The notes: generated by a model not told the origin, from the sequence alone. Shown: positions 745-60,946, counted from the first letter of the stretch. The stretch: 64,000 nt of DNA from Spartobacteria bacterium (GCA_009930475.1 RZYC01000007.1:6188-70187), one strand, 5' to 3'. Numbers and translations are program-made.

Positions 745-831
745 ATCTTTTCCAGTCATTGGAACTTTTGAAAATAAAAGTTCCAATGACTGGAACGTTC
801 CCCAAAAATACTTCCAATGGCTGGAACGTTC
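745..831. repeat. Array of three 25-bp REP-like palindromes, 31-bp period (units start 745, 776, 807)
   Basis: Cores TTCCAGTCATTGGAA (750-764), TTCCAATGACTGGAA (781-795), TTCCAATGGCTGGAA (812-826); 750-769 and 776-795 are a perfect 20-bp inverted repeat; lies between convergent genes. Confidence 0.9.
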
Positions 832-841
832 CAGAACAGGG

Positions 842-2401
842 TTAATGGCGCGGGGCGGACGCATCAAATTCGATGCGTAGCATAGCACCGTCGGCATAGA
901 CTCCTACAACCAGCTGTTGCAGGACGGCCAGGGCATCAATCCAGGCTTTTATCTCGTTGATCTGCTGGCGCAACGCAAGAGTTCCACCCGCGTTATCCAT
1001 CAGCAATGCAAGACTGTATCCAGTAAGTGCAAGCCGCAGTGCTGTACCGCCATGCTCCAGATCAAACCACAGGGCGCCAAGACTTGCACCATTGATCTTT
1101 GTATGCATTTCTCGCGGCATGGACATAGCGAATTCCACTGGCTCAGATTGCTTTAAGATCTTTCTGAGTGATTCCAGATTCGTGCTTAAATACAGTGCGT
1201 TTTCTGACAGTGCAAAACCGACCTGTTCCGCTTTGGGACGTGAACCGTACTGATTTTCCGTGGTTCCGGCAATGGCATACAGATCCATTCCTGCTTCCTT
1301 TCCACTGGGGGCTACGATAATACCCCAGCGATACCTCGCATTGAGTGCATCAATATAGCTGCGAATCGCCTGCAGAACCGCGTCCCTGCTTTGTATGGCC
1401 GATCCGGCCACAAGTACGGGTAGTTTTAAACGAAAGTAGCGGCCGCTCTGTTCATCGCCATACAATGCTAACGCGGTCCAGCCCCGGAGCTGCTCACGCA
1501 ACGGATTGATGCCGTCAAGTGCATCTGGCGGAAGATAATAGTTTAGCAGGCCAAACAGGATCTCGTCAGTCATTTCTGTATAGGCGTGCGGGCCTCCGTC
1601 GAACAGACGCGTTTTCCAGTCGGTCTCTCCTGCATTCGCTGCCGGCGGCGGCAGCTGCATGGGCGTGAGTGCGACCCCGCACAATTGATCACCTGTCACG
1701 TCGGTCAAGCCAAATAAGGTGGACGTTGACGGAAAACACCAACCTTTCTGCAGCCATATCCTGTCCGGAGCATCCACTCTATCACGCCCCGCAATCTGCG
1801 TAATGAATGATGACTCGTCTGATCCTTGTCCGTTGAGTCCGAGATAATCGTTCAGGGCATAGCGCAGGGCATTGGCGTCAGGGGATATACAGGCGATCAC
1901 GCCGTTTTCTACAATGCAGAACTGTGCAATGCGCTGCTGCTCTGCGTTGCTGAGGCTGTACAGAATATACCCTTCGTAGACTCCATCAATGGTCATTCCC
2001 GGAATATCGACGTAGTTCAACAGGTGCCTGGCCCATATCGCTTTGGAGCCCAAACTGTCGATAATAATCCATGTCCCGACGCCATAGGTTCCGTAATCCG
2101 GTATATATCCACAGTACAACGTGTCCGAAAGGGCAAAACGAAGCAGACGCGCCGACAGCGGGTCGTTCAGAAGTGCCTCGACGTCATCAGATTGGATATC
2201 CATGCCTGACAATATACTTTCAACCAGTGGATTCGACAGTGCTTCCGGGATGCGGTCAACCAATGCGTCATGCGCTGAAACCATCTTGGCAAACGACGGG
2301 ATGGCTTTCAGCAGCTTTTCCGGCTGCTTCGGTTCCCAGCCTGTCCAGCAGATTAGTCCCGCAATAAAAAAGAGCGCCACACCCCATTTATACCGCCTCA
2401 T
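842..2401 (-). CDS. Hypothetical exported/membrane-anchored protein (519 aa)
   Basis: Long ORF with N-terminal basic + hydrophobic segment (MRRYKWGVALFFIAGLICWTG); ATGA overlap with pyrD stop; no recognisable family motif. Confidence 0.75.
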   Translation of the reverse strand: MRRYKWGVALFFIAGLICWTGWEPKQPEKLLKAIPSFAKMVSAHDALVDRIPEALSNPLVESILSGMDIQSDDVEALLNDPLSARLLRFALSDTLYCGYIPDYGTYGVGTWIIIDSLGSKAIWARHLLNYVDIPGMTIDGVYEGYILYSLSNAEQQRIAQFCIVENGVIACISPDANALRYALNDYLGLNGQGSDESSFITQIAGRDRVDAPDRIWLQKGWCFPSTSTLFGLTDVTGDQLCGVALTPMQLPPPAANAGETDWKTRLFDGGPHAYTEMTDEILFGLLNYYLPPDALDGINPLREQLRGWTALALYGDEQSGRYFRLKLPVLVAGSAIQSRDAVLQAIRSYIDALNARYRWGIIVAPSGKEAGMDLYAIAGTTENQYGSRPKAEQVGFALSENALYLSTNLESLRKILKQSEPVEFAMSMPREMHTKINGASLGALWFDLEHGGTALRLALTGYSLALLMDNAGGTLALRQQINEIKAWIDALAVLQQLVVGVYADGAMLRIEFDASAPRH

Positions 2402-3321: not shown

Positions 3322-3325
3322 ATTC

Positions 3326-4180: not shown

Positions 4181-4246
4181 ATTACTATTCTGCCTTTTTA
4201 TTATTTTTATCTTGATCTAATCACCCCCATCTGCCACCCTGGCACC
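4181..4246 (+). promoter_or_regulatory. Putative leaderless promoter of RAYT copy 1 with upstream 21-bp box
   Basis: ATTACTATTCTGCCTTTTTAT (4181-4201), N9, C, TTGATC (4212-17), N17, CACCCT (4235-40), N6, ATG 4247; same geometry at the other three copies; no Shine-Dalgarno. Confidence 0.6.
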
Positions 4247-5209
4247 ATGAAACATCGAATTAAACAATCCCCCCTCGCCTACTACCATTGCATGAGCCGA
4301 ATTGTCGGTCGTCAAATGCTGCTGGGCGAAATAGAAAAAGAACACATGCACTCTCTGATCCGACGCATTGAAGGCTTCACAGGGGTGCGTGTTCTGACCT
4401 ATGCAATCATGACAAATCATGTGCATCTACTCCTTGAAGAGCCTGATAGAGATACGGTTATTTCGGACGAAGAATTCAACCGACGGATGACATTCCTTTA
4501 TTCGGAGGCGGAGTTGGTTGACTTGAAAGAGCGCTGGGCGATGTGGGATGCGGCCAGTGTCGAAGCCGACAAGAGACGCTATCTGGTGCGAATGCACGAT
4601 ATCAGTGAATTCATGAAGCAATTAAAGCAGCGATTTTCTCGCTGGTACAATCAAAGGAATCAGCGATCAGGTGCATTGTGGGATACACGGTTTAAAAGCG
4701 TATTAGTCCAACCGGGATTACCATTACGAACGGTTGCGGCGTACATTGAAATGAATCCTGTTCGGGCAGGCATGGAAAAAAGTCCCCACTTCTACCGCTA
4801 TTGCGGCTTTGGGGAAGCCATTGGCGGAAATTCAAAAGCACGCGAGGGCATTCGCCTGATCACTAAATCGATGGATACCACATTGCATACCTGGCATGAA
4901 GTGTCAGCCCATTATTTGGAACGGATTCTAATGTATGATGACGTACGAAAACACCCGGAACAGGCATGCACTGATCACGATTATCTGCGCAGCAAGCTTG
5001 GTAATAAACTGAAACTGACCGATTTCGAACGACTTCTGTGTCGATGCCGTTACTTTACAGATGGACGGATTATTGGCAGCCGCGCCTTTGTTGACGCATA
5101 TTTTGAGGAACACAGACATGATTTTGGAACCAGGCGAATTTGCGGTGCGCGAAAAATCAAAGGTGGCTGGGATGCTCTTTTTGCGATAAGGGAACTTGTC
5201 GACTGGTAA
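4247..5209 (+). CDS. RAYT-like Y1 (HUH) tyrosine transposase, copy 1 (320 aa)
   Basis: YYHCMSRIVGR, HUH motif YAIMTNHVHLLL, GALWDTRFKSVLV, catalytic-Tyr motif AAYIEMNPVRAG. Confidence 0.9.
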   Translation: MKHRIKQSPLAYYHCMSRIVGRQMLLGEIEKEHMHSLIRRIEGFTGVRVLTYAIMTNHVHLLLEEPDRDTVISDEEFNRRMTFLYSEAELVDLKERWAMWDAASVEADKRRYLVRMHDISEFMKQLKQRFSRWYNQRNQRSGALWDTRFKSVLVQPGLPLRTVAAYIEMNPVRAGMEKSPHFYRYCGFGEAIGGNSKAREGIRLITKSMDTTLHTWHEVSAHYLERILMYDDVRKHPEQACTDHDYLRSKLGNKLKLTDFERLLCRCRYFTDGRIIGSRAFVDAYFEEHRHDFGTRRICGARKIKGGWDALFAIRELVDW

Positions 5210-8451: not shown

Positions 8452-8488
8452 TGTCAATTTAAAATTTATAGTTAGTCTGATTTATTAG
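8452..8488 (-). repeat. Orphan copy of the RAYT-upstream unit (21-bp box, N9, ATTGACA) with no downstream gene
   Basis: Minus strand reads CTAATAAATCAGACTAACTAT-AAATTTTAA-ATTGACA; near-identical to the triplet at 50111-50229; lies between convergent genes. Confidence 0.7.
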
Positions 8489-9840: not shown

Positions 9841-10659
9841 TTACCAATCCCTGGAAGCACCGCCGCCACCCGACTGACCACCGCCAAAACCACCGAAACC
9901 GCTGCCGCCAAAACCGCCGCCAAAACCGCCATTCCCGCGTCCGCCGCCACCTTGCAGGGAAGACAGCAAAAATAAAGCCAGCCATGGATGACGAATCAGT
10001 TGGTAAATTATAAAAATGGAAAAAAGAAACATAAATATTTTTTTGTACCAGGGCAATGAGGCCCGCTGCTGCGTATCGATAAAACCCGGGGCAACGAGCC
10101 GACAGACATCTGACGCACCTTTATTGACCACCAAAGCGGGAGCCATACCGTCCCGCAATGCCTGCACCATCTTCTGTTCCAATGTGTCAAAGGCTGACAT
10201 ATCGGACAGCCCCAGAGCTGCGTTATAAATAATGCGCGCCTGCAGCTCACGTTTATTAACGTACAGAAGGATACCTGACCGTTTATTCAGCTGCCATTTC
10301 TCATACAGGAACTGCAGCTGCTCATCGGGATCATGAATAGAATCCCTTGAGGTGAAAATAACAACGCGTATGCGCGTTTTCAGCTCCAGCTGATGTAAAA
10401 GCTGTTCCCAGCGACGGGCGTCCTCTCGCTTGAGAAGGTGACCATCATCATTAACCAGACCGTGGTATCTCGCCTGTTCCAGCTGTGCCTGAGACTGGAC
10501 AGGAGCGAGCAAAAAAAAGACAAGCAGGAGAAAGCCGATGCGGCGGAAGAGTATACTCATCGTTTTAAATATATATGGCGTAATGCGAATCATAATGAAG
10601 GAATTTTGGCGTATGATTTCATTTATGCAAGATAATTCCCTATATCCCGGTGTGCCCAA
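9841..10659 (-). CDS. TPM domain protein with Gly-rich C-terminus (start uncertain, possibly ~10593)
   Basis: VNDDGHLL, GILLYV, C-terminal TM followed by GGGFGGSGFGGFGGGQSGGGGASRDW typical of TPM/YgcG family. Confidence 0.85.
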   Translation of the reverse strand: MGTPGYRELSCINEIIRQNSFIMIRITPYIFKTMSILFRRIGFLLLVFFLLAPVQSQAQLEQARYHGLVNDDGHLLKREDARRWEQLLHQLELKTRIRVVIFTSRDSIHDPDEQLQFLYEKWQLNKRSGILLYVNKRELQARIIYNAALGLSDMSAFDTLEQKMVQALRDGMAPALVVNKGASDVCRLVAPGFIDTQQRASLPWYKKIFMFLFSIFIIYQLIRHPWLALFLLSSLQGGGGRGNGGFGGGFGGSGFGGFGGGQSGGGGASRDW

Positions 10660-10668: not shown

Positions 10669-11940
10669 TCATCTCTTATGAAAGAAGATTTCGTATAGCA
10701 GAGACCAATGGGTAAAACGGTGTTCCTCGGCATCGCTTAAAATATCACCCTTGTGCGCCGTGATTTCCTGATTCACCATGCGCTCCAAGAGCTGTTTAAC
10801 AACATAAATGTTGCCATCCATGGCCTGCAATGCACACTCCGCCATTAGATACACTTCATCCGCCGAACACGAATCCTTCACCGGTTCCAGCATTTTTGCC
10901 GCAGCTTTGCGTTTGCCCTGCCGCATGAAGCTTAAGCTCATCAACCAGTGGGCCCGTACATGATCTATGATCTCATTTGGCATTTTCCGCTCATAATCAA
11001 TGGGGGTATGCAGAACCTCATCCAGCATTTTTGGTATAAGCACATCAAAAGTATAGTGCTCTCGAACTTTTTTCATGCCGGCAGCCGCTATTTGCTCCCG
11101 TTCCGCTTCATGTGTGAGGTAATAATTGATTTTATCCAGTAATTCCACCTCGTCGTGATACACCGCCAACTCGTGATCCGGCTCAAATATCTGATCCACA
11201 TCCTCCCGATAATCCGTCAGGATAAATCCCCCGCAGGCCATGGTATCAAAGAGCCGAACGGGTAGCGAGGTGACCAACTGTTCATTTGTGATGTTGATAT
11301 TTATCTTCGACTGACTGTAAATCCGCGGGCAATCCTTACGATTATCCGCATGTCCATGAAATAGCACATTCGGATGCGCGAGAGATCTCCACAGGTCATT
11401 GCCGAACAAATGAATACACTGTCCCTGATCAGCAAGGCGACGAAGCATGTCCTCGCGACGGGGCGTATGTGATGCGACAAAAGTAACATCATATTGATAG
11501 GATCCAGGCTGACGGGTATAGACCAGCGGATTCGTTCCAAAGTGCTGATATTTAACATTCAGAAAGCCCATTTCACAAAGCGGCTCAATATAATGCCGAT
11601 CCCACAAATATATGGAAGAGCAATGACGAATAAGCAGGTGGGATTCAGCCAGCAGTCTTAGCGGATCATCATAAAACCAATAGATAACCTTCACCGGGTT
11701 GGGGTAAACGGCCAAAATATGCGGCAGGATACCGCAGTGATCCACAGTAAAAATAATATCCGGTTCGGTCTTAACCATCGCATCGGCAAACACAACCAGT
11801 GCATGATACCATTCAGCGGGCAGATCGAGAACAGAAACCGTATGTCCAGCGCGTACCAACGTCTGCTGGACATCAACCAGTGTATGCGGCAGTACACGAC
11901 CTGCCCCCTTAAAGGATAGAATTTTCAGTGGCACAGTCAT
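10669..11940 (-). CDS. CgeB-like glycosyltransferase (GT-B, Glyco_trans_1_2)
   Basis: YSQSKININ, RLFDTMACGGFILTD, HEAEREQIAAAG..KV..HYTF. Confidence 0.8.
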   Translation of the reverse strand: MTVPLKILSFKGAGRVLPHTLVDVQQTLVRAGHTVSVLDLPAEWYHALVVFADAMVKTEPDIIFTVDHCGILPHILAVYPNPVKVIYWFYDDPLRLLAESHLLIRHCSSIYLWDRHYIEPLCEMGFLNVKYQHFGTNPLVYTRQPGSYQYDVTFVASHTPRREDMLRRLADQGQCIHLFGNDLWRSLAHPNVLFHGHADNRKDCPRIYSQSKININITNEQLVTSLPVRLFDTMACGGFILTDYREDVDQIFEPDHELAVYHDEVELLDKINYYLTHEAEREQIAAAGMKKVREHYTFDVLIPKMLDEVLHTPIDYERKMPNEIIDHVRAHWLMSLSFMRQGKRKAAAKMLEPVKDSCSADEVYLMAECALQAMDGNIYVVKQLLERMVNQEITAHKGDILSDAEEHRFTHWSLLYEIFFHKR

Positions 11941-12833
11941 GCGCTCTGCTCCCCCCTCAGGCGCGGATCAAAGACATCTCGCAAGGCATCGCCAATCACA
12001 TTAAACGCCAGCACAAGCAGGAAAATGGACAAGGTCACAAACGTCATTTCCCACCAGATGCCCTGCCATAAACGCAACCGGGCATTGTTAATCATGATGC
12101 CCCAGGAGGGTTCATTCTGCACACCGATACCCAGGAAACTGATAAAAATCTCCGTCGCCACCGCCGCAGGAAAGCGCAGCGAAAAAACAATAATGACAAT
12201 ATGCGATACGTTCGGAAGAATATGAAAAAACAGGATACGGACATGGGAATAACCCAGTGCCCGGGCCGCTCGTACATAGGCTCTGTTTTTGTGCTTAATA
12301 ACCTCTGCCCGAATCAGTCGACAGATCCCCACCCATGTCGTAAGGCCTATGCCGCAGTATATACCGGGTAAACCCTTTCCCACCGCAATAGATATAGCCA
12401 AAATAAACAACAGCCCCGGCATGGAAGCAACACTTGAATACAGCCAGACAATCAGCGCATCCGTACGTCCACCAAAGTAACCGCCGATGCACCCCAGGAC
12501 AACACCGATGGGGATAGCAATACAAGAAGTAATAATACCGACCTGAAAGGCAATACGGCTACCCTGCACCACACGTGAAAAGACATCGCGTCCCAGATTA
12601 TCCGTTCCGAAAATATGCGAGGGCGAGGGTGTTTCATAACGTTGCTCCATATTAATTTTCTGATAAGCCGGCGTCTGATCCTGCATCCGATAAAACCAGT
12701 AAACTCCTTCGCCATACAGCGCTGTCAACGTAAACAGCGCAATGAGCAGCAAACAGAAGCGATTCAACTTGCGCCGCCATAGCATTCCACCCGCCGACCG
12801 CCAAATAGACGAACTGTGACTCAATGCATTCAT
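11937..12833 (-). CDS. Oligopeptide/dipeptide ABC transporter permease (OppC/DppC-like)
   Basis: HIFGTDNLGRDVFSRVVQGSR, EAA-like YVRAARALG, HILPNV, SFLGIG, GDALRDVFDPR. Confidence 0.92.
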   Translation of the reverse strand: MNALSHSSSIWRSAGGMLWRRKLNRFCLLLIALFTLTALYGEGVYWFYRMQDQTPAYQKINMEQRYETPSPSHIFGTDNLGRDVFSRVVQGSRIAFQVGIITSCIAIPIGVVLGCIGGYFGGRTDALIVWLYSSVASMPGLLFILAISIAVGKGLPGIYCGIGLTTWVGICRLIRAEVIKHKNRAYVRAARALGYSHVRILFFHILPNVSHIVIIVFSLRFPAAVATEIFISFLGIGVQNEPSWGIMINNARLRLWQGIWWEMTFVTLSIFLLVLAFNVIGDALRDVFDPRLRGEQSA

Positions 12834-14140
12834 GACAACCGAACCCTCGGGTCAACCCACGCATAGCACAAGTCCGTCAGCAGGTTGACGCCCACATAAA
12901 AAAATGCCCCAAACACCACCACCGCCTGAATCACCGCAAAATCCGACGAATTTATTGCGTTGATACTAGCACTGCCCAACCCCGGAACACCGAAAAAACT
13001 CTCCAGCAGCAGGCTGCTCGTAAAAATAAAAGGCAAAGCCATACTGATCTGCGTCACTACCGGAATCATAGCATTACGAAGTACGTGACGTGTCAGAACC
13101 CTTGCGGTGCCTGCCCCTTTGGCATACGCCGTGCGTACATAATCATGATGCATTTCATCCAGCATCACCGTCCGATAAAACCGCACATCCCGTCCCAATC
13201 CAGTGACAATTCCAATAAGAACCGGCAGCACTAAATAAACCACCGATTCAAACCCCCAAATGGGAAACCAGCCCAGTTTAAAAGCAAACAGATATTGACC
13301 ACCAACAATCCATATAATGTAATTCACACTCATCAAGGCTGTTGCAAGAACAACACTCACTCGGTCAAACCATTTGCCCCGCTGCCAGGCACTGACCAAT
13401 GCCAACGCCAGTGCCATAATCGTTGTCCCGAATAATATAGGAATATTCAGCGCAAGCGACGGACCCGCACCCCGACGCAAAATCGCCAGCACATCCTCCC
13501 CCGTTTCCGACGAAACCCCAAAATCCCCCTGCAGCAGACGACGGACATAAAACCAGAGCTGACTGTCAAATGCATGCCCAACACCGCGTTCAAGATAAAT
13601 CATTCGTAAATGGATCGGCGCGGCACTGGTTAAGCTCGGTGCGGCCAATTCTTTGGCCGCTCCCGTCTTAAACACAATCGACATCTTACGCACCTTCACA
13701 CTCGCCGGCAGCGCCTCTTGACTTTCCGATTCAACCCCCGTCAACAACACCGGAGCCATGGATGAATATTCCATGGTCAACCGATACCGGTTGTCCTGAT
13801 ACAAAGGAAACACCAACGGCAATGGCGTCGTCATATCCGACGGAAGGACAACCATATCCCCTTTCTGCATCACATGAGGTAAACGATCCCAGTCACCAGC
13901 ACCAGTCAAAAAATCACCACCGCGAAAAGCCAATGTTTCCACCCACTTCCCGCAAATTAGCGGCAGATTATAGCCATGTGTCTCATTATACTCCTCAATC
14001 GCCTGTGGTTTGGCATTCTGTCCCAGGACCAGAGAGGCAGGGCTGCCCGCAACCACATGAAACAGCAGAAACGTCAACAGCAACACTCCGAACAAAATAG
14101 GAATCATGCGCAGCACACGCAGCAGAACATAACGAATCAT
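12830..14140 (-). CDS. Oligopeptide/dipeptide ABC transporter permease (OppB/DppB-like) with a large extracytoplasmic insertion
   Basis: GDFGVS, DYVRTAYAKG, HVLRNAMIPV, LESFFGVPGLG, DLCYAWVDPRVRL. Confidence 0.92.
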   Translation of the reverse strand: MIRYVLLRVLRMIPILFGVLLLTFLLFHVVAGSPASLVLGQNAKPQAIEEYNETHGYNLPLICGKWVETLAFRGGDFLTGAGDWDRLPHVMQKGDMVVLPSDMTTPLPLVFPLYQDNRYRLTMEYSSMAPVLLTGVESESQEALPASVKVRKMSIVFKTGAAKELAAPSLTSAAPIHLRMIYLERGVGHAFDSQLWFYVRRLLQGDFGVSSETGEDVLAILRRGAGPSLALNIPILFGTTIMALALALVSAWQRGKWFDRVSVVLATALMSVNYIIWIVGGQYLFAFKLGWFPIWGFESVVYLVLPVLIGIVTGLGRDVRFYRTVMLDEMHHDYVRTAYAKGAGTARVLTRHVLRNAMIPVVTQISMALPFIFTSSLLLESFFGVPGLGSASINAINSSDFAVIQAVVVFGAFFYVGVNLLTDLCYAWVDPRVRLS

Positions 14141-14200
14141 TCGCAGTTCCTCTCATCACTCAAATTGGCCGGCCACTTTTTCACGATTACACCCAGTTAA

Positions 14201-14287
14201 AAAAGTTCCAATCATTGGAACTTTTATTTTAAAAACGTCCAATCATTGGAACTTTTGTTTCAGAAAGTTCCAATCATCGGAACTTTT
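14201..14287. repeat. Tandem array of three 25-bp REP-like palindromes, 31-bp period (14201, 14232, 14263)
   Basis: AAAAGTTCCAATCATTGGAACTTTT / AAAACGTCCAATCATTGGAACTTTT / GAAAGTTCCAATCATCGGAACTTTT with 6-nt linkers ATTTTA and GTTTCA; 60 bp downstream of the RAYT copy 2 stop. Confidence 0.92.
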
Positions 14288-14347
14288 ATAAATAGCCCTT
14301 TTTCCACCAATTGGCAATATCCGTCGACAACGAATGAATCAAGCGGA

Positions 14348-15361
14348 TCAACACCAGTGCCCCAGATCACGAATCGTGTATAGATTCAGCCATCCCCCTC
14401 GCATTTTCCGTGCTCCCGTTTTTCGCGACGCGCTGAAATAATCCTGATTCTCGACAAAAAACGCCTCAACAAAGGCCTGCGACCCAAAAACCTGCCCATC
14501 TGAAAAATATCGATTTTTACATTGCAGCCGCTCAAAGTCCGAGATCTTCGTCCGGTGCCTAAGCTTATCCGGAATCATATCCCTATCCAACATCGCAAAA
14601 TGCGGATTTTTACGAACCTCATCATACATCAGAACACGTTCCCAATAAATGGATGACGCAGCACTCCACTCATGAATCTGCTCTTTCACCCGAACCGCAT
14701 CGTCCAGTGGTTCCACCCCTGACACCAACGTCATAATTCCTTTCCGCGCAGCATCTACGCCCCCCATGGCTTCACCCAAACCGCAAAACCGATACGTTTT
14801 TGGATCAGCCACGATACCCGCACGTACCGGATTCATTTCAATATACGAAGCCATCGTGCGCAAGGCCGCACCATCTTCCACCAGCACACTTTTAAAACGA
14901 TGTTCCCACAAGGTTCCGCACCGCCCCGTACGCCGATTATACCAGCAGGAAAACCGTTGCTTCACCTGCTTCATAAACTCGCTAATATCATGCATGCGTA
15001 TCAGATACCGATGCTTATCCTCTTCAACCAGCTCCGTCAACCCCGTCCATTCCCATTCCGCCCAGTGCTCCCGAATTTCATCTACCTCCGCTTCTGTATA
15101 TAAACAACGCAGCCGACGTAGCAGCTCGTCATCATCTATCGCATGCACCGCATCGCGATCCGGCTCCTCCAACAATAAGTGAACATGATTTGTCATCACC
15201 GCATAAGTTAGCACACGTACACCGGTAAAACCCTCCACTTTCCGGATTAATCGCCGCATGTGCTCTTTTTCGACATGGCCCATCAACATCGCTCGGCCCA
15301 CAATACGCGACATACAATGATAATAAGCCAGATGATCTCTTTTAATTCGTTTACGTCTCAT
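14348..15361 (-). CDS. RAYT-like Y1 (HUH) tyrosine transposase, copy 2 (337 aa, most divergent)
   Basis: YYHCMSRIVGR, YAVMTNHVHLLL, GTLWEHRFKSVLV, ASYIEMNPVRAG; start reassigned to ATG 15361 by homology and promoter geometry. Confidence 0.9.
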   Translation of the reverse strand: MRRKRIKRDHLAYYHCMSRIVGRAMLMGHVEKEHMRRLIRKVEGFTGVRVLTYAVMTNHVHLLLEEPDRDAVHAIDDDELLRRLRCLYTEAEVDEIREHWAEWEWTGLTELVEEDKHRYLIRMHDISEFMKQVKQRFSCWYNRRTGRCGTLWEHRFKSVLVEDGAALRTMASYIEMNPVRAGIVADPKTYRFCGLGEAMGGVDAARKGIMTLVSGVEPLDDAVRVKEQIHEWSAASSIYWERVLMYDEVRKNPHFAMLDRDMIPDKLRHRTKISDFERLQCKNRYFSDGQVFGSQAFVEAFFVENQDYFSASRKTGARKMRGGWLNLYTIRDLGHWC

Positions 15362-15428
15362 ACCGTCAAGATAAACACATGATTCGAGGTGTTGCAAGCA
15401 ATATAATATAGTAATAGTCTGGAGATAT
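15362..15428 (-). promoter_or_regulatory. Putative leaderless promoter of RAYT copy 2 with upstream 21-bp box
   Basis: Minus strand: ATATCTCCAGACTATTACTAT (15428-15408), N9, C, TTGCAA (15397-92), N18, TATCTT (15373-68), N6, ATG. Confidence 0.6.
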
Positions 15429-15446
15429 TATTATTTATTTTTGACA

Positions 15447-43812: not shown

Positions 43813-43878
43813 TATATTATTCTGACTTACTATCATTTTCCTCTTGACCCGCCCCTGCAAATACCCCATCGTACCTGC
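43813..43878 (+). promoter_or_regulatory. Putative leaderless promoter of RAYT copy 4 with upstream 21-bp box
   Basis: TATATTATTCTGACTTACTAT (43813-33), N9, C, TTGACC (43844-49), N17, CATCGT (43867-72), N6, ATG 43879. Confidence 0.65.
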
Positions 43879-44841: not shown

Positions 44842-45012
44842 GCCGGGCGCATGATTTGTCCGTTGGCAGGACGTGAAATACTTTTGTTTGACTAATACGC
44901 TATAAGTATTCGCATAATCTGTGTTATTTATATAGTTCAAGTCAATGATTGATCCTTCGTGAATGAATGGTATGCAGGATTCAAGATATTTAACTCGAAC
45001 CACTGTGGTTTC

Positions 45013-48000
45013 ATGAAAACAAAAATTCTATACACTTTGTACATCTGCGTTTCGCTTTCGTTTCTTCCATTTTACGGCTTGGCTCAGACACCCCGAGTGA
45101 ATGAACTTTGCGCTCAGGCATCCGATCGCCTGCTTCGTTGGGATACCAACGGAATTCCAAAATTAGGGACAGGAGCATCCTGGTATGACGTAAACTTTTC
45201 CGATAGTGACTGGTCGCGTGGAGACGGTGATTTCGGCTATGGCGGCACAAATACAGTTGGAACAGATCTCGGCGAAGAAATGTACGGGCAATCCTTCTCG
45301 CTATATATTCGAACATCTTTCACTCCTGACAGCGCATTACTGACCGCGACATCTGCTTTACAACTGGTTATGAGTTACGATGACGGGTTCATTGCCTATC
45401 TCAACGGAAAAGAAATTGCCCGACGCAATATGGGCGCAACCAACAGCTTTGCCTATCACGATCAGCCCACTTTTAATGAGTGTATCAGCAACGAAACCAT
45501 CACCATCGGCATCGCCTCCAATCTGCTAATCTCCGGCACCAATGTACTGGCGATTCAAGGGCACAACCTCCTCATTGATCAATCTACTTTTCAGCTGTCA
45601 GCAGGTCTTAACGTGGAATCTCCTTCATCGGTACTTGTGCGATACAGCGACGAATGGGCTTACAAAGTAGGCACAACGGAACCTTCGGGAGGAGCCGTTG
45701 ATCCTGCATTTGACCCTGACTATTCCTCCATAAACACTGACTGGACTCAAACGGACTACGACGCATCCAACTGGTCCATCGGAGCTGGGCCCATTGGGTA
45801 CGGGGACGACGATGATGCGACCGACGTAAAGGATGAAGTGTACGGCATTGCCTATTCCGTATATATGCGGCAGACCTTTCAAGCAACGACAACGGACATC
45901 GAATCCACCAATTCATTGATTTTCACCGTCGACTTTGATGATGGGTACGTGGCCTATGTCAATGGAAAGGAAATCAGTCGCAGCAACTTGGGGACACTGG
46001 GAGAAATCATTCCGCATAATCAGGCAGCCGATCCTTCTCATGAGGCGGGAATTCCTGTGACAACGAATATTGGCACCGCCTCAAACTGGCTGACCGTTGG
46101 TGAAAACGTTTTTAGTGTGCAGGTGCATAATCAGGATAAATGGAGTTCAGACATGACGATGTCAGCCGATCTGGACATCGTAGGAACGACGACACAAGCC
46201 CTCGTACGTCACGAAAACAACTGGCAGTTTTTCATTGGCACCACCGAACCCCGAGACGCGGAACAAGCCCTGCGCGAACCAGATTTCTACGACTGGGTTG
46301 AACTCATCAACACCAATACCTCTCCCATCAATCTGAAAAACTGGGCGTTGAGCGATGACGCGACAAAACCCACCAAGTGGGTATTCCCTGATGTATCCAT
46401 CGGGGCCGGAAAAACCCTGCTTGTATTTTGTTCCGGATACGATATTCGCGAGACCAATGCCCCCTATCTGCACACCAGTTTCAAACTTTCCGCCTCGGGG
46501 GAATATCTGGGTCTATTCAATGCACAGAGCGTCCCCGTTTCGCAAATTACGCCCGAATTTCCTAAGCAACCCATGTTTCATTCTTATGGCTGGGACACTG
46601 TATCCCAAAGCTACCGCTACTTCGACACCCCCACGCCCGAAGAACCCAACAGCGGTTTAACCTACTCGGGCGTCGTAGCAAATCCTATATTCAACACACC
46701 GCAGGGATTTCATACAGGCTCCGTCAACGTAGAAATCAGACAGACAGACAATGCAGACATTCGTTATACGCTGGACGGAAGTGAACCTACACTAAACCAT
46801 GGAAGCGAATATAGTACGGCACTAACACTTACGTCCAACACGATAATAAGAGCCAAAGCCTTTCACACAAATGAGCTACCCTCGGAATGCATCACGGCAA
46901 CCTACCTCATTGACCAACCCGCTGTCATCCAGCAGTTGCCGGTCCTGTCCATGGTCGGAGATGCCGGTCGCACATTCTATGATCCAACGGGCATTACGTC
47001 CATCAACGGAGGCAAATACACAGGGGACGATCCCGACGAATCAAAATGGTCATCCACCAATGCCGTCAACGACTACAATATCCCCATGGAACACGGCCGC
47101 CCCTTTGAACGTTTTTCAGACATGGCCTACATTCCGTCCGGCACCAATACCGCACTGCAAACGGGATGCGGCATTCGTTTCGGCGGCGGTGACTACGTAC
47201 GTTCAATTACCAAGTCGGGCATATGGACCAACGGCCCCGCCTACAAGCCCTCTTTCAACCTCTATTTCCGCGACGAATACGGCGACAGCCGACTGGAAAA
47301 TCTAATTATCACCAATTCTCCTATAAAAGATTACGACAACCTTCGCCTGCGAGCCGGCAACAATGACTGGTATAACCCTTTCATACGCGACGAACTCAGT
47401 CGACGTTTAGCCATGGACTGCGGCTATGCGAGCAGCATCGGATCATTCCTAAACCTATATATCAACGGGGAATACAAGGGCTATTACAATATTGTTGAAA
47501 AATACGAGACGTCCTTCTTTCAGTCGTCCTACGACAGCACCAATCTTTGGGATGTGATAAAATCATACGAGGAAATCGCCGACGGTGACGCCATTGCATG
47601 GAGATACATGCTGAACTTCTTTACCAATCAAAACCTATCCGTCAGCAGCAATTATACCACAGCCTGCTCCCTTCTGGACGTGACAAACTTCGTCGACTAC
47701 CTGCTCATTGAAACCTACAGCGTCAATCCCGACTGGCCCGACAACAACTGGGCTGCGGCCAAAGAGCGCACCACCAACGGAATCTTCCGATTCTACGTAT
47801 GGGACTCTGAACAATGCTTCGTCGATCATTATATATCAGGCAACTGTTTCACCCAATATCCCGCATGGTGGGATGGCGGCGGAAAAGGGTTAAACGGGCA
47901 GGATACGCCCATTGCCAACATCTATCGCGCCCTGACCAACAACTCAGACTTCAAAATGCTCTTTGCCGACCGCATCCAAAAACAATTTTTCGATAGCGGC

Positions 48001-50001
48001 GCACTGACCGATAAAGAGATCGCAAAGCGTTTTGTCGAACTAGAAACAACCATGCGCGATACCGTCGAAGCCACCTTCGGGACATTCCGAACGACGATAA
48101 CCAATAACTGGATACCCAATCGACGCGCCATTGCCTTCCAGCAGTATACCGATGAAGGACTTTGGCCAGCACTAAGCGCACCGTCGTTTAGCACTACAAG
48201 CGGTACAGTGATGGCCGGTACATCCTTTTCCATGACCAACAACAACGGCTCCGGCACCATCTATTACACCCTCGACGGCAGCGATCCGCGTCTGTCCGGC
48301 GGCGGCATTGGCGGAACATCCTATACCACTGCGTTATCCATCGACTACAATACCATCATTCGCGCCCGCTGTTACGACAGCGGACAATGGAGCGCAGAAC
48401 GCACCGTACAGCTCATTACCGACGCACAGCCAACGCTGAAAATCACTGAGATCATGTACAATCCACCAGAACCGTCTGGGGCCGAAACCAACAGCGCCTT
48501 TACCGCGCAGGATTTTGAATATGTCGAATTCAAAAATACCGGCACGAACACCATAAGCCTCATCGACATGAAGCTCACCAATGCCATAAACTTCACTTTC
48601 CCCGCCTTCACTCTGGCTCCGGGTGCATTGGTGGTCATCGCGCACAACACCAACGCTTTTACCCTGCGCTACACGAATACCAGTTTTGTTGCGGGAGCCT
48701 ACGAAGGCAACCTTAACAACGCCGGGGAAACCATTAACCTGCTGGGCATCACAGGCACACAGGTTCTCACCTGCACATTCAACAACAGCTGGTATCCCCC
48801 CACCGATGGACTGGGTTATTCGCTCGTCCCCACCAACCCCGTACCCGAGGGCTCCCCCTCCGACATGGCCTACTGGCGCGTCTCCAGCGAAGTCAATGGC
48901 TCGCCTGGACACGACGATCCGACCTCAACATATATCCCGCCCCTGCTTGTCAACGAGGCACTGACCCATACCGATCTTCCTCAATCCGATGCCATTGAAC
49001 TCTATAACCCCACAGCTACCAATGTATCGCTGGACGGCTGGTATCTCACCGACAACCGCGATCTGCCCACCAAATATCAGATCACTGCCGGACAAAGCGT
49101 CGATGCCCACGGCTATTGGACCATCTATGAAAACACCGGGGATACCAACAACATCCCCATCACCTGTTTCGGCAATGCCTTTGCCTTGAACTCCCACGGT
49201 GACAGCGTGTTCCTGTTCTCGCCAAACCTGCAATACAGCCACGGATTCACCTTCGAAGGGGCCGAAAACGGCATCAGCCTCGGGCGATACGAAAACAGTA
49301 TTGGCACCGAGGATTTCCCCGCACAATGGAGCACAACCCTTGGAACAACCAACGACGGTCCGCGCGTGGGTCCCGTTGCCATCACCGAATTCATGTACAA
49401 TCCACCCGACGGACAGCATGAATTCATCGAACTGGTCAACATCACCACCACCGATGTCATGCTCTATAACACCACCAACTCGTGGCAGCTCACCGGCATC
49501 GGATATACCTTCCCCACCAACATCATCATGCACACCAACGGCGTGGTACTGCTTGTACGAGACACCATCACCCCGGAACAATTCCGTACATCCAACAACG
49601 TCCCCGCCAATGTCCCCATCTTCACCTATAGCGGAAAACTGGATAACGGAGGCGAAACTCTTCGCCTGAAAATGCCCGACACACCCGACGAAAAAGGCGT
49701 CCCCTATATTGTCACCGATAAAATCACCTATGATGATCAGTCGCCCTGGCCCACTAATGCCGACGGATACGGCTCATCATTGGCCCGTCGCACCGTGATA
49801 TCCTACGGGAATGAACCAACCAACTGGTTCGCCCAGTATCCGCCCACCATCGGCATTGCCCCACCCTTTACCCCCATCGTGATGCCAACACCCGTTCCTC
49901 CCGTTCCAACACCGACACCCTCGCCGACACCGACACCGTTCCCCACACCCGTCACAACCAACAGCACGCTGTCATGGCTCATGATTTTGTTGCTGGATTG
50001 A
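45013..50001 (+). CDS. Large secreted lamin-tail-domain / CotH kinase family protein (~1660 aa)
   Basis: Signal peptide MKTKILY...GLAQ; CotH motifs LRLRAGNND, DWPDNNW, YVWDSE; two YTLDGSxP (CHB_HEX_C-like) modules; four lamin-tail motifs (NE/TE...Y...E.IEL.N); PT-rich tail. Confidence 0.88.
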   Translation: MKTKILYTLYICVSLSFLPFYGLAQTPRVNELCAQASDRLLRWDTNGIPKLGTGASWYDVNFSDSDWSRGDGDFGYGGTNTVGTDLGEEMYGQSFSLYIRTSFTPDSALLTATSALQLVMSYDDGFIAYLNGKEIARRNMGATNSFAYHDQPTFNECISNETITIGIASNLLISGTNVLAIQGHNLLIDQSTFQLSAGLNVESPSSVLVRYSDEWAYKVGTTEPSGGAVDPAFDPDYSSINTDWTQTDYDASNWSIGAGPIGYGDDDDATDVKDEVYGIAYSVYMRQTFQATTTDIESTNSLIFTVDFDDGYVAYVNGKEISRSNLGTLGEIIPHNQAADPSHEAGIPVTTNIGTASNWLTVGENVFSVQVHNQDKWSSDMTMSADLDIVGTTTQALVRHENNWQFFIGTTEPRDAEQALREPDFYDWVELINTNTSPINLKNWALSDDATKPTKWVFPDVSIGAGKTLLVFCSGYDIRETNAPYLHTSFKLSASGEYLGLFNAQSVPVSQITPEFPKQPMFHSYGWDTVSQSYRYFDTPTPEEPNSGLTYSGVVANPIFNTPQGFHTGSVNVEIRQTDNADIRYTLDGSEPTLNHGSEYSTALTLTSNTIIRAKAFHTNELPSECITATYLIDQPAVIQQLPVLSMVGDAGRTFYDPTGITSINGGKYTGDDPDESKWSSTNAVNDYNIPMEHGRPFERFSDMAYIPSGTNTALQTGCGIRFGGGDYVRSITKSGIWTNGPAYKPSFNLYFRDEYGDSRLENLIITNSPIKDYDNLRLRAGNNDWYNPFIRDELSRRLAMDCGYASSIGSFLNLYINGEYKGYYNIVEKYETSFFQSSYDSTNLWDVIKSYEEIADGDAIAWRYMLNFFTNQNLSVSSNYTTACSLLDVTNFVDYLLIETYSVNPDWPDNNWAAAKERTTNGIFRFYVWDSEQCFVDHYISGNCFTQYPAWWDGGGKGLNGQDTPIANIYRALTNNSDFKMLFADRIQKQFFDSGALTDKEIAKRFVELETTMRDTVEATFGTFRTTITNNWIPNRRAIAFQQYTDEGLWPALSAPSFSTTSGTVMAGTSFSMTNNNGSGTIYYTLDGSDPRLSGGGIGGTSYTTALSIDYNTIIRARCYDSGQWSAERTVQLITDAQPTLKITEIMYNPPEPSGAETNSAFTAQDFEYVEFKNTGTNTISLIDMKLTNAINFTFPAFTLAPGALVVIAHNTNAFTLRYTNTSFVAGAYEGNLNNAGETINLLGITGTQVLTCTFNNSWYPPTDGLGYSLVPTNPVPEGSPSDMAYWRVSSEVNGSPGHDDPTSTYIPPLLVNEALTHTDLPQSDAIELYNPTATNVSLDGWYLTDNRDLPTKYQITAGQSVDAHGYWTIYENTGDTNNIPITCFGNAFALNSHGDSVFLFSPNLQYSHGFTFEGAENGISLGRYENSIGTEDFPAQWSTTLGTTNDGPRVGPVAITEFMYNPPDGQHEFIELVNITTTDVMLYNTTNSWQLTGIGYTFPTNIIMHTNGVVLLVRDTITPEQFRTSNNVPANVPIFTYSGKLDNGGETLRLKMPDTPDEKGVPYIVTDKITYDDQSPWPTNADGYGSSLARRTVISYGNEPTNWFAQYPPTIGIAPPFTPIVMPTPVPPVPTPTPSPTPTPFPTPVTTNSTLSWLMILLLD

Positions 50002-50110
50002 CCTGGAAGTCATTAGGCAGGGCCAATGCTGTAAGCATAAAGAGCAATCCTGTCGGCTGTATTCCTGTATAACAAAACAATGCAAAAACAAGGCCATGTC
50101 GTGCTCTTTA

Positions 50111-50229
50111 TGCAAGACAAAAATAATGGTTAGTCTGCTTTATTATCTTCCTATATGCAAGACGGAAATTATAGTTAGTCTGCTTTATTATCATCAAGAC
50201 AAAAATTATAGTTAGCCTGCTTTTCTATC
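50111..50229 (-). repeat. Three tandem ~36-bp orphan copies of the RAYT-upstream unit
   Basis: Minus strand: ATAGAAAAGCAGGCTAACTAT-N9-CTTGAT, ATAATAAAGCAGACTAACTAT-N9-CTTGCA, ATAATAAAGCAGACTAACCAT-N9-CTTGCA; 21-mers at 50208-28, 50171-91, 50126-46; between convergent genes. Confidence 0.88.
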
Positions 50230-58710: not shown

Positions 58711-60880
58711 CGCGGGCCTCTTTCTTTGCGGGCGGCATGCGCCAGCCTGACCATATTCTTTTTAAACGATGGGTAATGCCCATATGAACACGGGAGAAGA
58801 TCGATAACATGCGGTGGAATCGCTGGAAATACCAGTCGCTGGAATGGTTTTGAGACATGTTTAAAATGGCGGTTAATGCGGATATTTTATTCGAAACCAG
58901 CTGATTGCAGGCGTCAACCAAATCGCGATACAGTGCCACATCTTCCCTCGCCACCAATAGCGCGGCATCGGCATGCTGCGCCAGAAAGCGTGTAAGATCG
59001 CTTTCCAGCAGCGGTGGCGCATCAAGAATGATGATGTCGTACTGTTCATCCAGCTGATTGAGTGCATCCGACAGTTTTTGGCGATGCGCCTTTTCCAGCG
59101 GCACCGCAAAATGAATCACATCAATCCGGCGTTCGGTATCCATCACGGCCGAGGTTAACAGGTTGTTCGGGGTCAGTGCCGCGTTCTCCTCCGAATGATC
59201 TGCCTTTAACAGAGCAATGCGATGAACATAGCGTGATAACAGCTGAGAAAGATTCAGTGCCACCGCAGAGGTGCCGCTCTTCGGATTCAATCCGGTCAGC
59301 AGAAAACGATGCGAATGGAATTGCTCGTAATCATAATTCAATCGCACGGCGATATCTTTGAACACGTTGTAAATCAAGGGATCGGATTCAGCTGTAATCT
59401 GTTCCAGCGGACCGTTGCTGATCGTAACGGGCAAGGGAATCCCGCCTCCCAGCGCCATCCGCATATCCCGTATGGAACGGAGCCGGTTGTCCATGAAATC
59501 GAAAAAGACAAACAAGCTCATCATTGCTCCGAAACTGAATACCAGCGCCATCAGTACAAATTGGGGACGTTTGGAGGAGGAGGGCATGGAAGGTGTATCT
59601 GCCAGATGCTGAATGCTCACCCGAACCGGAGCTTTGGATGCCATTTCACAATCATCGATCCGTACATTGAGTGCGGTCAATCGCTCACGCAGCTGATTGA
59701 TATCATACGTACTGTCAGCAGCACGAAAGATGGTGTATGACACTTCCGAAGCATCCTTCACCGCATTTTCAAGCTGTTCCCGCAGCTCATCCGTACCACT
59801 GACGGCCGCCTCATAGGCATGTTGCGCGAGAACCACCTTTTCATCCAGTTCATAGCGTCGTTTCTGAATCAGATTGGCAATGGTGGAGTCATTGACTTTC
59901 TGTTTGTATCCGATCAGATATTCCGTCATCGCTTTCATGCGCTGTTCGACATATACACGATCCGCATTATTGGTGGTTAAACCATCAATGGTCGTACGCA
60001 GCTGCTGAAGCTGTTCATAGGTCCACTGCTCGATGCGATTGATACCAAAGTTATCGGCAACCCTTTCGTCGGCAAATGGCTGAAGACTCATTTCTTCAAT
60101 AGCTTTGCGATCTTTCTTCATCTGGCTCAATTCAGATTCCTTGCGCACTTCATCTCTGTAAGCCTCCAGATAGAGCCGCTGAATCTGTTCCAGACGGGAA
60201 AGATGCGCCGTGTATCCTTCGTGCAGAAACGCCTTATTATCTACTTGTTCAGCCAGCTCCAGCAGCTGCTGCTGGGCGCGGTCGATGCGGGCGGCGATTT
60301 TGGTCCGCTCCGCTTTCAGATAGGTCATGCGGCGCTCATTCTGCCGCCCCTGTTCATTGTGCAGCTCGTCCAGTAATGACTGCATAATATTGTTGAGCAG
60401 TTCGGCAATGCCTTTGGGCGACGTGGATTTCAAAAAGACATCAATAAGATAGGTTCGCTGAATTTCAACCGTTCTTAAATGTTTCTGGATACGTATGACG
60501 TTGCCGAGTTCGTCGCTGTTCTTACGAAGGAAGTCCGGCCAGTTATCTTTATCCATGCGGCGCAGTGCATCTGTAATAACGGTTCGTCCACCGACACGCT
60601 GAACCAGCGTTCGTGTAAAATCTCCCAGATTCCCTGGTATGGTTTCCTTTTCCCGCCCTGTGAGAGTGGTTTCTTTTCCCGGATCAATCAGCAACTGGCC
60701 CGAAGCCATGTAGGACGGAATACTCTTCGGAATCACCACCGGCAGGATGGGAAGAATCAACGCAAATACCAGCATGCTCAATACAAAGATCAGCGGGCTC
60801 CGACGAAATACAAAACCCAGCAGATCAAAGGGTTTCTTTGCTTTCAATGGACCGGTAAAATGCGGGCGTTCCGAGGTCAT
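58703..60880 (-). CDS. Wzc/GumC-like polysaccharide co-polymerase with a degenerate tyrosine-kinase domain
   Basis: Two TMs flanking coiled-coil periplasmic domain; cytoplasmic P-loop remnant TGLNPKSGTSAVALNL, Walker B IILDAPP; no Tyr cluster. Confidence 0.85.
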   Translation of the reverse strand: MTSERPHFTGPLKAKKPFDLLGFVFRRSPLIFVLSMLVFALILPILPVVIPKSIPSYMASGQLLIDPGKETTLTGREKETIPGNLGDFTRTLVQRVGGRTVITDALRRMDKDNWPDFLRKNSDELGNVIRIQKHLRTVEIQRTYLIDVFLKSTSPKGIAELLNNIMQSLLDELHNEQGRQNERRMTYLKAERTKIAARIDRAQQQLLELAEQVDNKAFLHEGYTAHLSRLEQIQRLYLEAYRDEVRKESELSQMKKDRKAIEEMSLQPFADERVADNFGINRIEQWTYEQLQQLRTTIDGLTTNNADRVYVEQRMKAMTEYLIGYKQKVNDSTIANLIQKRRYELDEKVVLAQHAYEAAVSGTDELREQLENAVKDASEVSYTIFRAADSTYDINQLRERLTALNVRIDDCEMASKAPVRVSIQHLADTPSMPSSSKRPQFVLMALVFSFGAMMSLFVFFDFMDNRLRSIRDMRMALGGGIPLPVTISNGPLEQITAESDPLIYNVFKDIAVRLNYDYEQFHSHRFLLTGLNPKSGTSAVALNLSQLLSRYVHRIALLKADHSEENAALTPNNLLTSAVMDTERRIDVIHFAVPLEKAHRQKLSDALNQLDEQYDIIILDAPPLLESDLTRFLAQHADAALLVAREDVALYRDLVDACNQLVSNKISALTAILNMSQNHSSDWYFQRFHRMLSIFSRVHMGITHRLKRIWSGWRMPPAKKEARDG

Positions 60881-60921
60881 GCCGCCCTCTTCCTGATTCG
60901 TTTATCTCTGACACACGCAAC

Positions 60922-60946
60922 AAAAGTTCCAATGATTGGAACTTTT
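60922..60946. repeat. Single 25-bp REP-like palindrome
   Basis: AAAAGTTCCAATGATTGGAACTTTT (12-bp perfect arms) between the wza-like and wzc-like genes. Confidence 0.88.

Follow-up and report, generated by a model that had tools for sequence, protein, structure and literature searches.

Genes and repeats of the window

The DNA considered here, referred to as the window, is a stretch of 64,000 nucleotides from Spartobacteria bacterium (GCA_009930475.1, RZYC01000007.1:6188-70187) with a G+C content of about 50%. It carries four genes (R1 to R4) for proteins resembling the RAYT transposases of the Y1/HUH type, eight copies of a short box that precedes these genes or stands alone, and nine copies of a 25-bp palindrome. 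The window is probably best understood as two independent features, namely box-headed RAYT-like gene units and a RAYT-independent palindrome family of the Kiritimatiellota type. The RAYT-like genes are the following:

4247-5209, plus strand: R1, RAYT-like Y1/HUH paralogue of 320 aa, PF01797 at E 5.6e-14, HUH and Tyr motifs intact
14348-15361, minus strand: R2, RAYT-like paralogue of 337 aa from a 337-aa subfamily, PF01797 at E 3.3e-11, start taken from the alignment
30573-31535, plus strand: R3, RAYT-like paralogue of 320 aa, identified by alignment and hidden Markov model (HMM)
43879-44841, plus strand: R4, RAYT-like paralogue of 320 aa, PF01797 at E 1.4e-14, copy used for the structure model

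The matches of R1, R2 and R4 to the Pfam family Y1_Tnp (PF01797) have E-values from 1e-11 to 1e-14. The likely true starts lie at 4247 (R1), 15361 on the minus strand (R2), 30573 (R3) and 43879 (R4); naive calls of open reading frames (ORFs) are too long for two of the genes, and the naive start of R3 is at 30462. The four proteins align end to end with 58-75% identity, and the alignment shows the HUH motif TNH[VF]HLL and the tyrosine motif YIEMNP intact in all of them. Four intact Y1/HUH genes had been listed in a preliminary description of this DNA, and this is confirmed by the PF01797 matches, by alignment and HMM in the case of R3, and by the intact catalytic motifs. No Rfam family was found in the window, and a PADLOC scan of it for defence systems gave no match.

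Protein fold and class placement

The AlphaFold model of R4, built on 38 family sequences, reached a pLDDT of 89.7 and a pTM of 0.90. Its best match in the PDB is the RAYT of Escherichia coli (4er8, TM 0.67 on the target), and the next matches are TnpA of ISDra2, IS608 and IS200; the Y1 HUH fold, the HUH motif and a single catalytic Tyr are all present in the window proteins. Residues H58 and H60 of the HUH motif, Y166 and N170 are invariant in 38 of 38 family members, and because of this invariance of the HUH and Tyr residues catalysis has probably been retained in the family. The proteins are 320-337 aa long and carry the motifs NHVH/NHFH, LW[DE] and YIEMNP. A three-helix insertion of about 55 aa follows the HUH strand, its helices lying at residues 74-113 of the model. 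The C-terminal half of the model has no match in the PDB, and the last 127 residues gave no Pfam match at E<=10 except noise (the C-terminal domain is about 130 aa long). A Bac_DnaA_C or helix-turn-helix (HTH)-like C-terminal domain, which is the trait of subgroup 2.1.2, was not found, the whole protein matching only Y1_Tnp. The NCBIfam equivalog NF047646 (REP_Tyr_transpos) was matched with 58.3 and 63.7 bits, below its cut-off of 80, and NF033573 (IS200) with 25.3 and 18.8 bits, below its cut-off of 55. The window proteins are nearer to RAYT than to IS200, yet under both curated cut-offs.

In the superfamily classification of Quentin et al. (2018), class 2 of TnpA_Y1 has the signature Y---NP, and subclass 2.1 has the motifs NHVH, WE and YIE(L/M)NP (PMC6006769). 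Proteins of subclass 2.3, nested within 2.1 in the tree of these authors, have a median length of about 325 aa, carry some 55 inserted residues between beta3 and alphaC and end in a C-terminal domain; a genome holds several of them, and these copies have diverged (PMC6006769). Neither subclass is associated with repetitive extragenic palindromes (REPs) (PMC6006769), and 20 of the 26 TIRYT genes of Di Nocera et al. (2013) fall in subclass 2.1 (PMC6006769, PMC3733652). The window proteins show all the features of subclasses 2.1/2.3 in question (NH[VYF]H, WE, Y---NP, long protein, C-terminal domain, no REP), this placement being a comparison with the features of Table 1 of PMC6006769 and not a position in the authors' tree. 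The best fit for them is with the REP-less, TIRYT-like class-2 subclasses 2.1/2.3.

Size and age of the gene family

Of the 3,974 homologues that a protein search returned at E<=1e-10, the best 120 include about 73 from one metagenome-assembled genome (MAG) named 'Spartobacteria bacterium' with EOL87_ locus tags. Since its copies are at most 77-79% identical to those of the window, the EOL87 MAG is a related genome and not the window's own. Probably, the sample behind the window assembly is the sequencing run X2, which has all sampled words in common with the window. In this run the organism is present at about 21x, and the conserved core of the gene has a summed depth of about 680x on 33 contigs of the same depth, which corresponds to at least about 30 family copies at >=80% nucleotide identity over the conserved core.

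Between the window paralogues, the proportion of synonymous differences (pS) is 0.73-0.86, i.e., saturated, and that of nonsynonymous differences (pN) is 0.17-0.29; dN/dS was 0.07 in the single computable pair. It follows that the window copies are old and that purifying selection acts on them. Copies as nearly identical as those of IS200 were not seen, the nearest window paralogues being 72-75% identical in protein. Placed in a tree of 119 sequences, the window's four copies do not group as mutual nearest relatives and interleave with EOL87 copies in 4-5 subfamilies. Star-like bursts of about 20 copies, with branches of 0.1-0.2 substitutions per site, are seen for the EOL87 genome in the same tree. 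The family has grown repeatedly but slowly, with old subfamily splits and later lineage-specific bursts. In contigs of a strain diverged by 1-3%, R2 and R4 occupy the same places as in the window, and no empty sites or precise deletions were found in these contigs. A contig scan for the family, in a collection lacking the window genome and the EOL87 MAG, yielded no homologue above 48% identity, and a metagenome scan gave 15 distant loci.

The box in front of the genes

A box of about 22 bp followed by a TTG hexamer occurs eight times in the window, four times before the genes and four times without a gene. The gene-linked copies are:

4190-4217, plus strand: R1 box (4190-4211) and TTGATC (4212-4217), 29 nt before the R1 ATG
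15392-15421, minus strand: R2 box (15421-15398) and TTGCAA (15397-15392), spacer 2 nt longer, 30 nt before the R2 ATG
30516-30543, plus strand: R3 box and TTGACC, 29 nt before the R3 ATG
43822-43849, plus strand: R4 box and TTGACC, 29 nt before the R4 ATG

The box consists of an A/T-rich TATAAT-like stretch, the core CWGNCT, (W)ACTAT and a T-rich run, after which the TTG hexamer follows. The degenerate pattern CWGNCTWWYYATNWWNTNNNNNTTG has 7 matches in the window against 0.07 expected, the eighth (R2) copy being off by its longer spacer; the pattern was built from the copies themselves, so this enrichment is circular and shows only that the box is not a common low-complexity word. With the R2 copy added to the pattern matches, the eight box-TTG units described earlier, four before RAYT genes and four alone, are recovered. 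The identity of the box between paralogues is 67-80%, and because it is conserved while synonymous sites are saturated, the box is held by selection. When the flanks of R1, R3 and R4 are aligned on the ATG, only the segment from -60 to -31 keeps 10-12 of 15 identities; farther upstream and 3' of the stop codon, similarity is at the random level.

The same layout, in which a (G)ACAG/CAGNC core and then an A/T-rich stretch precede TTG[AC]NN, is found in 17 of about 22 readable family loci, the hexamer ending 28-32 nt before the ATG. These loci include the following:

EOL87-type Logan contigs: L137, L212, L214, L215, L216, L218
Opitutia/Puniceicoccales homologues of 33-42% identity: L124, L125, L126, L130, L133
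Metagenome contig: L142

The distance from the core to the TTG falls into two classes, 14-16 nt and 22-24 nt, and several short-class members have a core in the form of a compact palindrome (TTAGACAGTCTAA, GTGACTGTCAC or AGCCAGGCT). The box is tied to the genes both physically and evolutionarily, and it travels with the gene across classes of Verrucomicrobiota. A different upstream layout was seen in a more distant metagenome clade of about 35% identity (L143, L145-L149), where a TATAAT-like box is combined with a GC hairpin and an evident Shine-Dalgarno sequence, AGGAG; the leaderless-type box layout is therefore clade-specific. The upstream repeat of TIRYT genes has the motif GGGGWSAS (Di Nocera et al. 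2013, PMC3733652). In a by-eye comparison with this motif, distant members carry GGGACAGGC or GGTGACAGG, and the window copies keep only CAGNC/CTGAC. The box may thus descend from a TIRYT-type upstream repeat that is now present on one side only.

Ordinary TTGACA-N17-TAnnnT promoters precede the genes that follow the RAYT-like genes in the window, which makes TTGAC credible as a -35 element here. The putative -10 elements are weak and of the form nAnnnT (CATCGT, CATCGT, CACCCT and TATCTT), with a 17-nt spacer and 6-7 nt before the ATG. This geometry predicts that transcription starts at the A of the ATG and yields a leaderless mRNA. No inverted copy of the box was found downstream of any of the four genes, and the downstream flanks are unrelated to each other.

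Gene-less copies of the box

The remaining four copies lie at two places:

8452-8479, minus strand: single gene-less box and TTGACA, in a convergent intergenic gap
50110-50219, minus strand: tandem triplet of gene-less box-TTG units, at offsets of 37 and 45 nt, in a convergent intergenic gap

All four point into the 3' end of the opposing gene, and they are more alike among themselves than to the gene-linked boxes. The repeat unit of the triplet extends from the A/T-rich ATAATAAAG through the core to just past the TTG hexamer, so that it comprises the whole upstream module without the -10 region or the ATG. At 50168-50197 on the minus strand, TTGATG of unit 1 is separated by 18 nt from TATAAT of unit 2, and together they fit the sigma-70 consensus at 10 of 12 positions. 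This match points antisense into the 3' end of a gene for a 1,680-aa protein. In run X3, from the strain diverged by 1-3%, a 4-nt insertion (TATG) was observed inside the triplet at 50194.

The runs X1 and X2, both sharing all sampled words with the window, contain exactly one further close copy of the gene-less type of box. It is followed by TTGACA and a sequence like the -10 region of R3, and another paralogue therefore probably follows it. After the gene-less boxes, tblastn and HMM searches detected no remains of a RAYT-like ORF. Gene-less boxes were also not found in 90 kb of EOL87-type, RAYT-rich DNA. The candidate origins of these boxes are local duplication of the promoter module, loss of the gene leaving a relic, or a by-product of enzyme action.

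The palindrome family

The palindromes of the window are distributed over four loci:

745-831: array of three units, 31-bp spacing, units 1 and 2 exact reverse complements, between convergent genes
14201-14291: array of three direct units, 31-bp spacing, 57 nt after the R2 stop and 61 nt before the next gene start
34110-34169: doublet, 31-bp spacing, units exact reverse complements, between convergent genes
60922-60950: single palindrome, between two co-oriented genes

The motif TTCCA-N5-TGGAA has 7 exact matches in the window against 0.09 expected, and two further units with one mismatch, at 14237 and 14268, bring the total to nine. Every spacing within the arrays of the window is 31 bp. The full 25-bp unit is AAAAGTTCCAAnnnTTGGAACTTTT with the core TTCCAA-N3-TTGGAA, flanked by A-runs and T-runs, and the GTAG/GGAG foot is absent from beside the units in the window. 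In all these respects (nine A/T-flanked units, four loci, constant spacing and no canonical foot) the preliminary description was accurate. The units fold as hairpins with a stem of 9-11 bp (-9.5 kcal/mol as DNA, z-score -5.7). All four loci follow at least one gene 3' end, two of them between convergent and two between co-oriented genes. In the doublets 750/781 (750-795) and 34115/34146 (34115-34160), the reverse complementarity of the two units is exact and extends to the asymmetric base and the free centre. Each of these doublets can also be regarded as one palindrome of about 50 bp, which is REPIN-like.

A scan for AAGTTCCA-N5-TGGAACTT in one genome per species gave at least 120 loci. Among the matches listed, 70 loci in 24 assemblies belong to Kiritimatiellia, Kiritimatiellales, Pontiellaceae, Verrucomicrobiota or related Verrucomicrobia-type names, and several of these assemblies hold 8-15 loci each. 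The spacings in the relatives are 31 bp (69 cases), 32 (26), 21/22 (3), 42 (2), 53 (1) and 63 (1). Since these are whole multiples of about 10.5 bp, the phasing is a feature of duplex DNA and not of an RNA hairpin. The 5-nt centres are identical or reverse-complementary in 29% of 99 neighbouring pairs in relatives versus 11% of random pairs from different loci. This sharing of centres by neighbours, together with the exact reverse-complement doublets, indicates that local copying, direct or inverted, contributes to the growth of the arrays. Run X2 contains about 124 contigs with about 195 unit-equivalents of the palindrome. Two EOL87-type contigs start or end exactly at a palindrome unit (L214:6-30 and L216:8-32). 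Palindromes are under-counted within contigs because repeats break short-read assemblies. In the collection of papers searched, none was found to mention both Kiritimatiellota and palindromes.

Probable independence of genes and palindromes

In 494 kb of palindrome loci from the 24 assemblies, no RAYT-like homologue was found by tblastn (E<=1e-3) or by a six-frame search with the family HMM (E<=10), and the same searches were negative in 152 kb of further Kiritimatiellia-type loci. The window, in contrast, holds four family copies in 64 kb. Conversely, no palindromes were found in 16 RAYT-like loci of other Verrucomicrobiota, including Opitutia and Puniceicoccales, nor 3' of the R2-subfamily relatives in L216 and L218. 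Only one of the four window genes (R2) adjoins an array, and on one side only, which is near chance given about 55 intergenic gaps. This adjacency is therefore incidental, as the 16 other loci and the R2-subfamily relatives lack palindromes. Outside this sub-lineage, genes and palindromes each occur without the other.

The proposal that the enzymes mobilise or process the palindromes was not supported. The preliminary description had itself named repeats equally abundant in relatives without these genes as the finding that would speak against it, and the lack of co-occurrence in the sampled loci comes close to this. Its broader notion of a non-canonical multi-paralogue RAYT system survives in part: a Y1/HUH family with a fold nearest to that of RAYT, a conserved box tied to the genes and the lack of a GTAG foot are all found, with the palindromes falling outside the unit.

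Relation to known systems

The window proteins share with subclasses 2.1/2.3 and with TIRYT the class-2 signature Y---NP and the NHVH and WE motifs. The absence of a REP or hairpin near the gene is common to them and subclasses 2.1/2.3. The resemblance to subclass 2.3 further includes the long protein (2.3 median 325 aa), the beta3-alphaC insertion of about 55 aa, the conserved C-terminal domain and several diverged copies per genome, and, as judged by eye, the GACAG core of the upstream repeat is somewhat like GGGGWSAS of TIRYT (PMC3733652). Unlike subclasses 2.1/2.3, which have a mean of 1.9-3.9 copies per genome and are found in Proteobacteria, the present family has dozens of copies per genome and occurs in the Planctomycetes-Verrucomicrobia-Chlamydiae (PVC) group. 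It also differs from subclass 2.1 by a C-terminal domain without a Bac_DnaA_C or HTH match. Two further differences from both subclasses and from TIRYT are the box fused to a putative -35 hexamer, whose distance from the ATG is fixed and of the leaderless type, and the gene-less solo and tandem boxes. In a TIRtron the gene is bracketed by terminal inverted repeats; here the repeat is upstream only, and none of the four genes checked has a terminal inverted repeat.

REPtrons, such as E. coli TnpA_REP/YafM (PDB 4er8) and the genes of Pseudomonas REPINs (PMC3116915), resemble the window genes in the Y1/HUH fold, for which they are the best structural match, in being chromosomal and not like insertion sequences (IS), and in the abundance of a short palindrome family in the same genome. 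They differ in that the present genes have no flanking cognate palindromes (R2 has them on one side only, and R1, R3 and R4 have none), no GTAG foot and scores under the NCBIfam equivalog cut-off. Furthermore, many paralogues are present here instead of one per repeat family, and palindromes and genes do not co-occur in the loci sampled from related genomes. With the TnpA of IS200/IS605 elements (IS608, ISDra2) the family shares the HUH and single-Tyr core and the presence of multiple copies in the genome. In contrast to these elements, its copies are 58-75% identical with saturated dS instead of about 99% identical, the signature is Y---NP instead of Y--NQ, the protein is twice as long, and the score is 19-25 bits against a cut-off of 55. 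Subterminal hairpins at both ends were likewise not found: seven of the eight boxes lack them, and there are no inverted or flanking repeats and no downstream similarity.

The palindromes resemble REP clusters (bacterial interspersed mosaic elements, BIMEs) in being short, intergenic, clustered and of mixed orientation. They are distinguished from BIMEs by the lack of any dedicated transposase found and by a sequence conserved phylum-wide, which in BIMEs is conserved within a species. Arrays of sites of the Lrp/AsnC type are spaced about three helical turns. The palindromes are similar to such arrays in having 15-bp dyad cores about 31-32 bp apart from centre to centre, as would be expected for cooperative binding on the same face of the helix.

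Interpretation and alternatives

If the window is read as two independent features, the four genes would be old intact paralogues of a PVC-group branch of class-2 Y1/HUH proteins like subclasses 2.1/2.3. Each copy would form a self-contained unit of box, promoter and ORF, in which a TTGAC-type -35 element ending 29-30 nt before the ATG, together with a weak -10 element, would produce a leaderless mRNA. The box may serve as an operator or recognition site. The protein bound there would most likely be that of the family itself (autoregulation), and the box could also be the place where the enzyme acts during copying of the unit. The gene family would not be insertion-sequence-like in behaviour, and the gene-less boxes would be solo copies of the promoter module, one a local triplication and one a single copy. 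The palindrome arrays may be docking sites for a DNA-binding protein that is dimeric and binds cooperatively; once transcribed into RNA, they might in addition serve as weak terminator-like hairpins in both directions. Docking is the better reading of the two because of the phylum-wide conservation, the GC-poor stem and the arrays of 2-4 units in helical phase.

Several points weigh against this interpretation. The transcription start site and the leaderless layout are themselves inferred from the box geometry; a sigma-70 consensus scan calls no promoter before R4, and the -10 element CATCGT matches the consensus at 3 of 6 positions. The single metatranscriptome with words in common with the window proved not to contain the organism, and no RNA run was found for the locus of a Pontiellaceae isolate that carries a palindrome. 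Protein binding at the box is putative. In seven of eight copies, the single strands of the box show no more folding than shuffled sequences (z about 0), and known Y1 enzymes need a hairpin substrate. Classical Y1 cleavage at the box is therefore disfavoured, which does not in itself prove an operator role; with no fold and no inverted copy, the box element has neither the hairpins of the IS200/IS605 and RAYT systems nor the terminal repeats of TIRtrons. The absence of the gene family from palindrome-rich relatives refers to sampled loci and not to whole genomes. The EOL87-type genome has both the gene family and the palindromes (two in 90 kb, both at contig ends), so that the two features co-occur in this sub-lineage. 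Finally, the gene context in relatives is too noisy to tell terminator-like from promoter-side placement: stop-to-stop ORF calling over-calls in GC-rich genomes and puts many true arrays 'inside ORFs', and the spacing result was used instead.

A REP/RAYT-type system, in which the Y1 enzymes spread or process the palindromes, is very improbable in spite of a protein fold nearest to that of the E. coli RAYT and the three-unit array 57 nt past the R2 stop. The stability of the units as single-strand hairpins, the BIME-like local copying within arrays and the abundance of both genes and palindromes in this genome also speak for such a system. They are outweighed by the three of four genes without a nearby palindrome, by the lack of adjacency in R2-subfamily relatives, and by the 494 kb of palindrome loci and 16 loci of other classes in which one feature is present without the other. 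Moreover, the 58-64 bits against the RAYT equivalog cut-off of 80, the missing GTAG-type foot and the dozens of diverged copies do not agree with true RAYTs, which are single-copy per REP family, and the spacing in multiples of about 10.5 bp points to duplex DNA. The palindromes might also be plain bidirectional intrinsic terminators whose stem sequence is conserved by chance. Their position after gene 3' ends at all four window loci, the succession of A-run, stem and T-run, and one unit called terminator-like by a scan would fit. This is nevertheless unlikely for a GC-poor stem whose sequence is kept across a phylum, for arrays of 2-4 units at 31/32 bp or other multiples of about 10.5 bp, which RNA hairpins do not need, and for arrays of which some lie between divergent genes (6 of 42 in a rough context count in relatives).

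As for the box, it is conceivable, if doubtful, that it is only a promoter (a UP-like A/T tract and a -35 element) recognised by RNA polymerase or by a host factor, inherited with the gene and untouched by the RAYT-like protein; to about the same degree, the gene-less copies could then be remains of gene loss or chance duplications. The TTG is the best-kept part of the module and stands at a fixed distance from the ATG, the segment between core and TTG is A/T-rich like UP elements, other window genes use TTGACA-type promoters, and the gene-less triplet creates the 10/12 sigma-70 match. Against a promoter alone stand a CAGNC/GACAG core that is conserved at 33-42% protein identity and was not seen before the neighbouring window genes examined, and the compact palindromic core of several members, which is typical of the site of a dimeric regulator; also, no trace of a decayed gene follows the gene-less boxes. 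Less likely still, box and gene could form an active or recently active one-ended Y1 element, the box being a nick or recognition site like a replication origin or left end. It is equally unlikely that copying from the box makes the gene copies and that abortive events leave solo boxes and tandem ladders. Such an element would agree with the lineage-specific bursts of about 20 copies in the EOL87 genome, with conserved DNA running from the box on the left to the stop codon, and with solo and triplicated boxes whose unit is the whole module to just past the TTG hexamer. The HUH and Tyr residues invariant in 38 members and the likeness of the box core to GGGGWSAS of the TIRYT terminal repeats (PMC3733652) point in the same direction. 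It is made less likely by the lack of near-identical copies (nearest 72-75% protein identity, saturated dS), by R2 and R4 in place and no empty site seen in the strain diverged by 1-3%, by the absence of a hairpin at the box, of a right end and of an inverted repeat, and by 90 kb of RAYT-rich DNA of the relative without a gene-less box. A slow variant, quite unlikely in our estimation, would make the box the site of action of the HUH enzyme in a previously undescribed, hairpin-less 'box + gene' Y1 element without a right end. That such an element copies from a promoter-embedded site, leaves solo and tandem boxes and is kept in dozens per PVC genome for a host-level reason is held to be just as improbable.

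Y1/HUH enzymes are known as jumping genes (IS200/IS605) or as single-copy domesticated partners of REPs. Neither picture applies to a branch that is kept intact under purifying selection, whose diverged copies number dozens per genome, and in which every copy has a conserved control box to itself and lacks a hairpin substrate. What is notable in the gene family is the copy number, the one-sided box fused to a predicted leaderless-type promoter, and the solo boxes. The box is a concrete candidate DNA partner for the REP-less class-2 subclasses, whose function has been a question since their descriptions in 2013 and 2018; a leaderless promoter layout is predicted for it, and the natural solo boxes could serve as controls. 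The tempting link between genes and palindromes is removed, and the abundant Kiritimatiellota palindromes become a separate, helix-phased phenomenon.

Neighbouring genes

In the region 11937-16508 of the window, a gene for an oppD-like ATPase lies upstream of R2, the palindromes and oppB-oppC. Insertion of R2 and the palindromes into an opp operon was considered and rejected, since by the position of oppD in relatives the arrangement is not an interrupted conserved operon. In 17 Kiritimatiellia-type relatives oppB-oppC occurs without oppD within 4 kb upstream, and in Pontiella and Chthoniobacterales oppD follows oppC; this comparison is silent on what was inserted. At 9841-10659 a 272-aa membrane protein with a long Gly-rich C-terminal tail (GGGGRGNGGFGGGFGGSGFGGFGGG...) is encoded. 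Directly after R4, at 44959-50001, lies the gene for the 1,680-aa protein mentioned above, which is secreted-looking and has repeated domains and a Pro/Thr-rich C-terminal tail.

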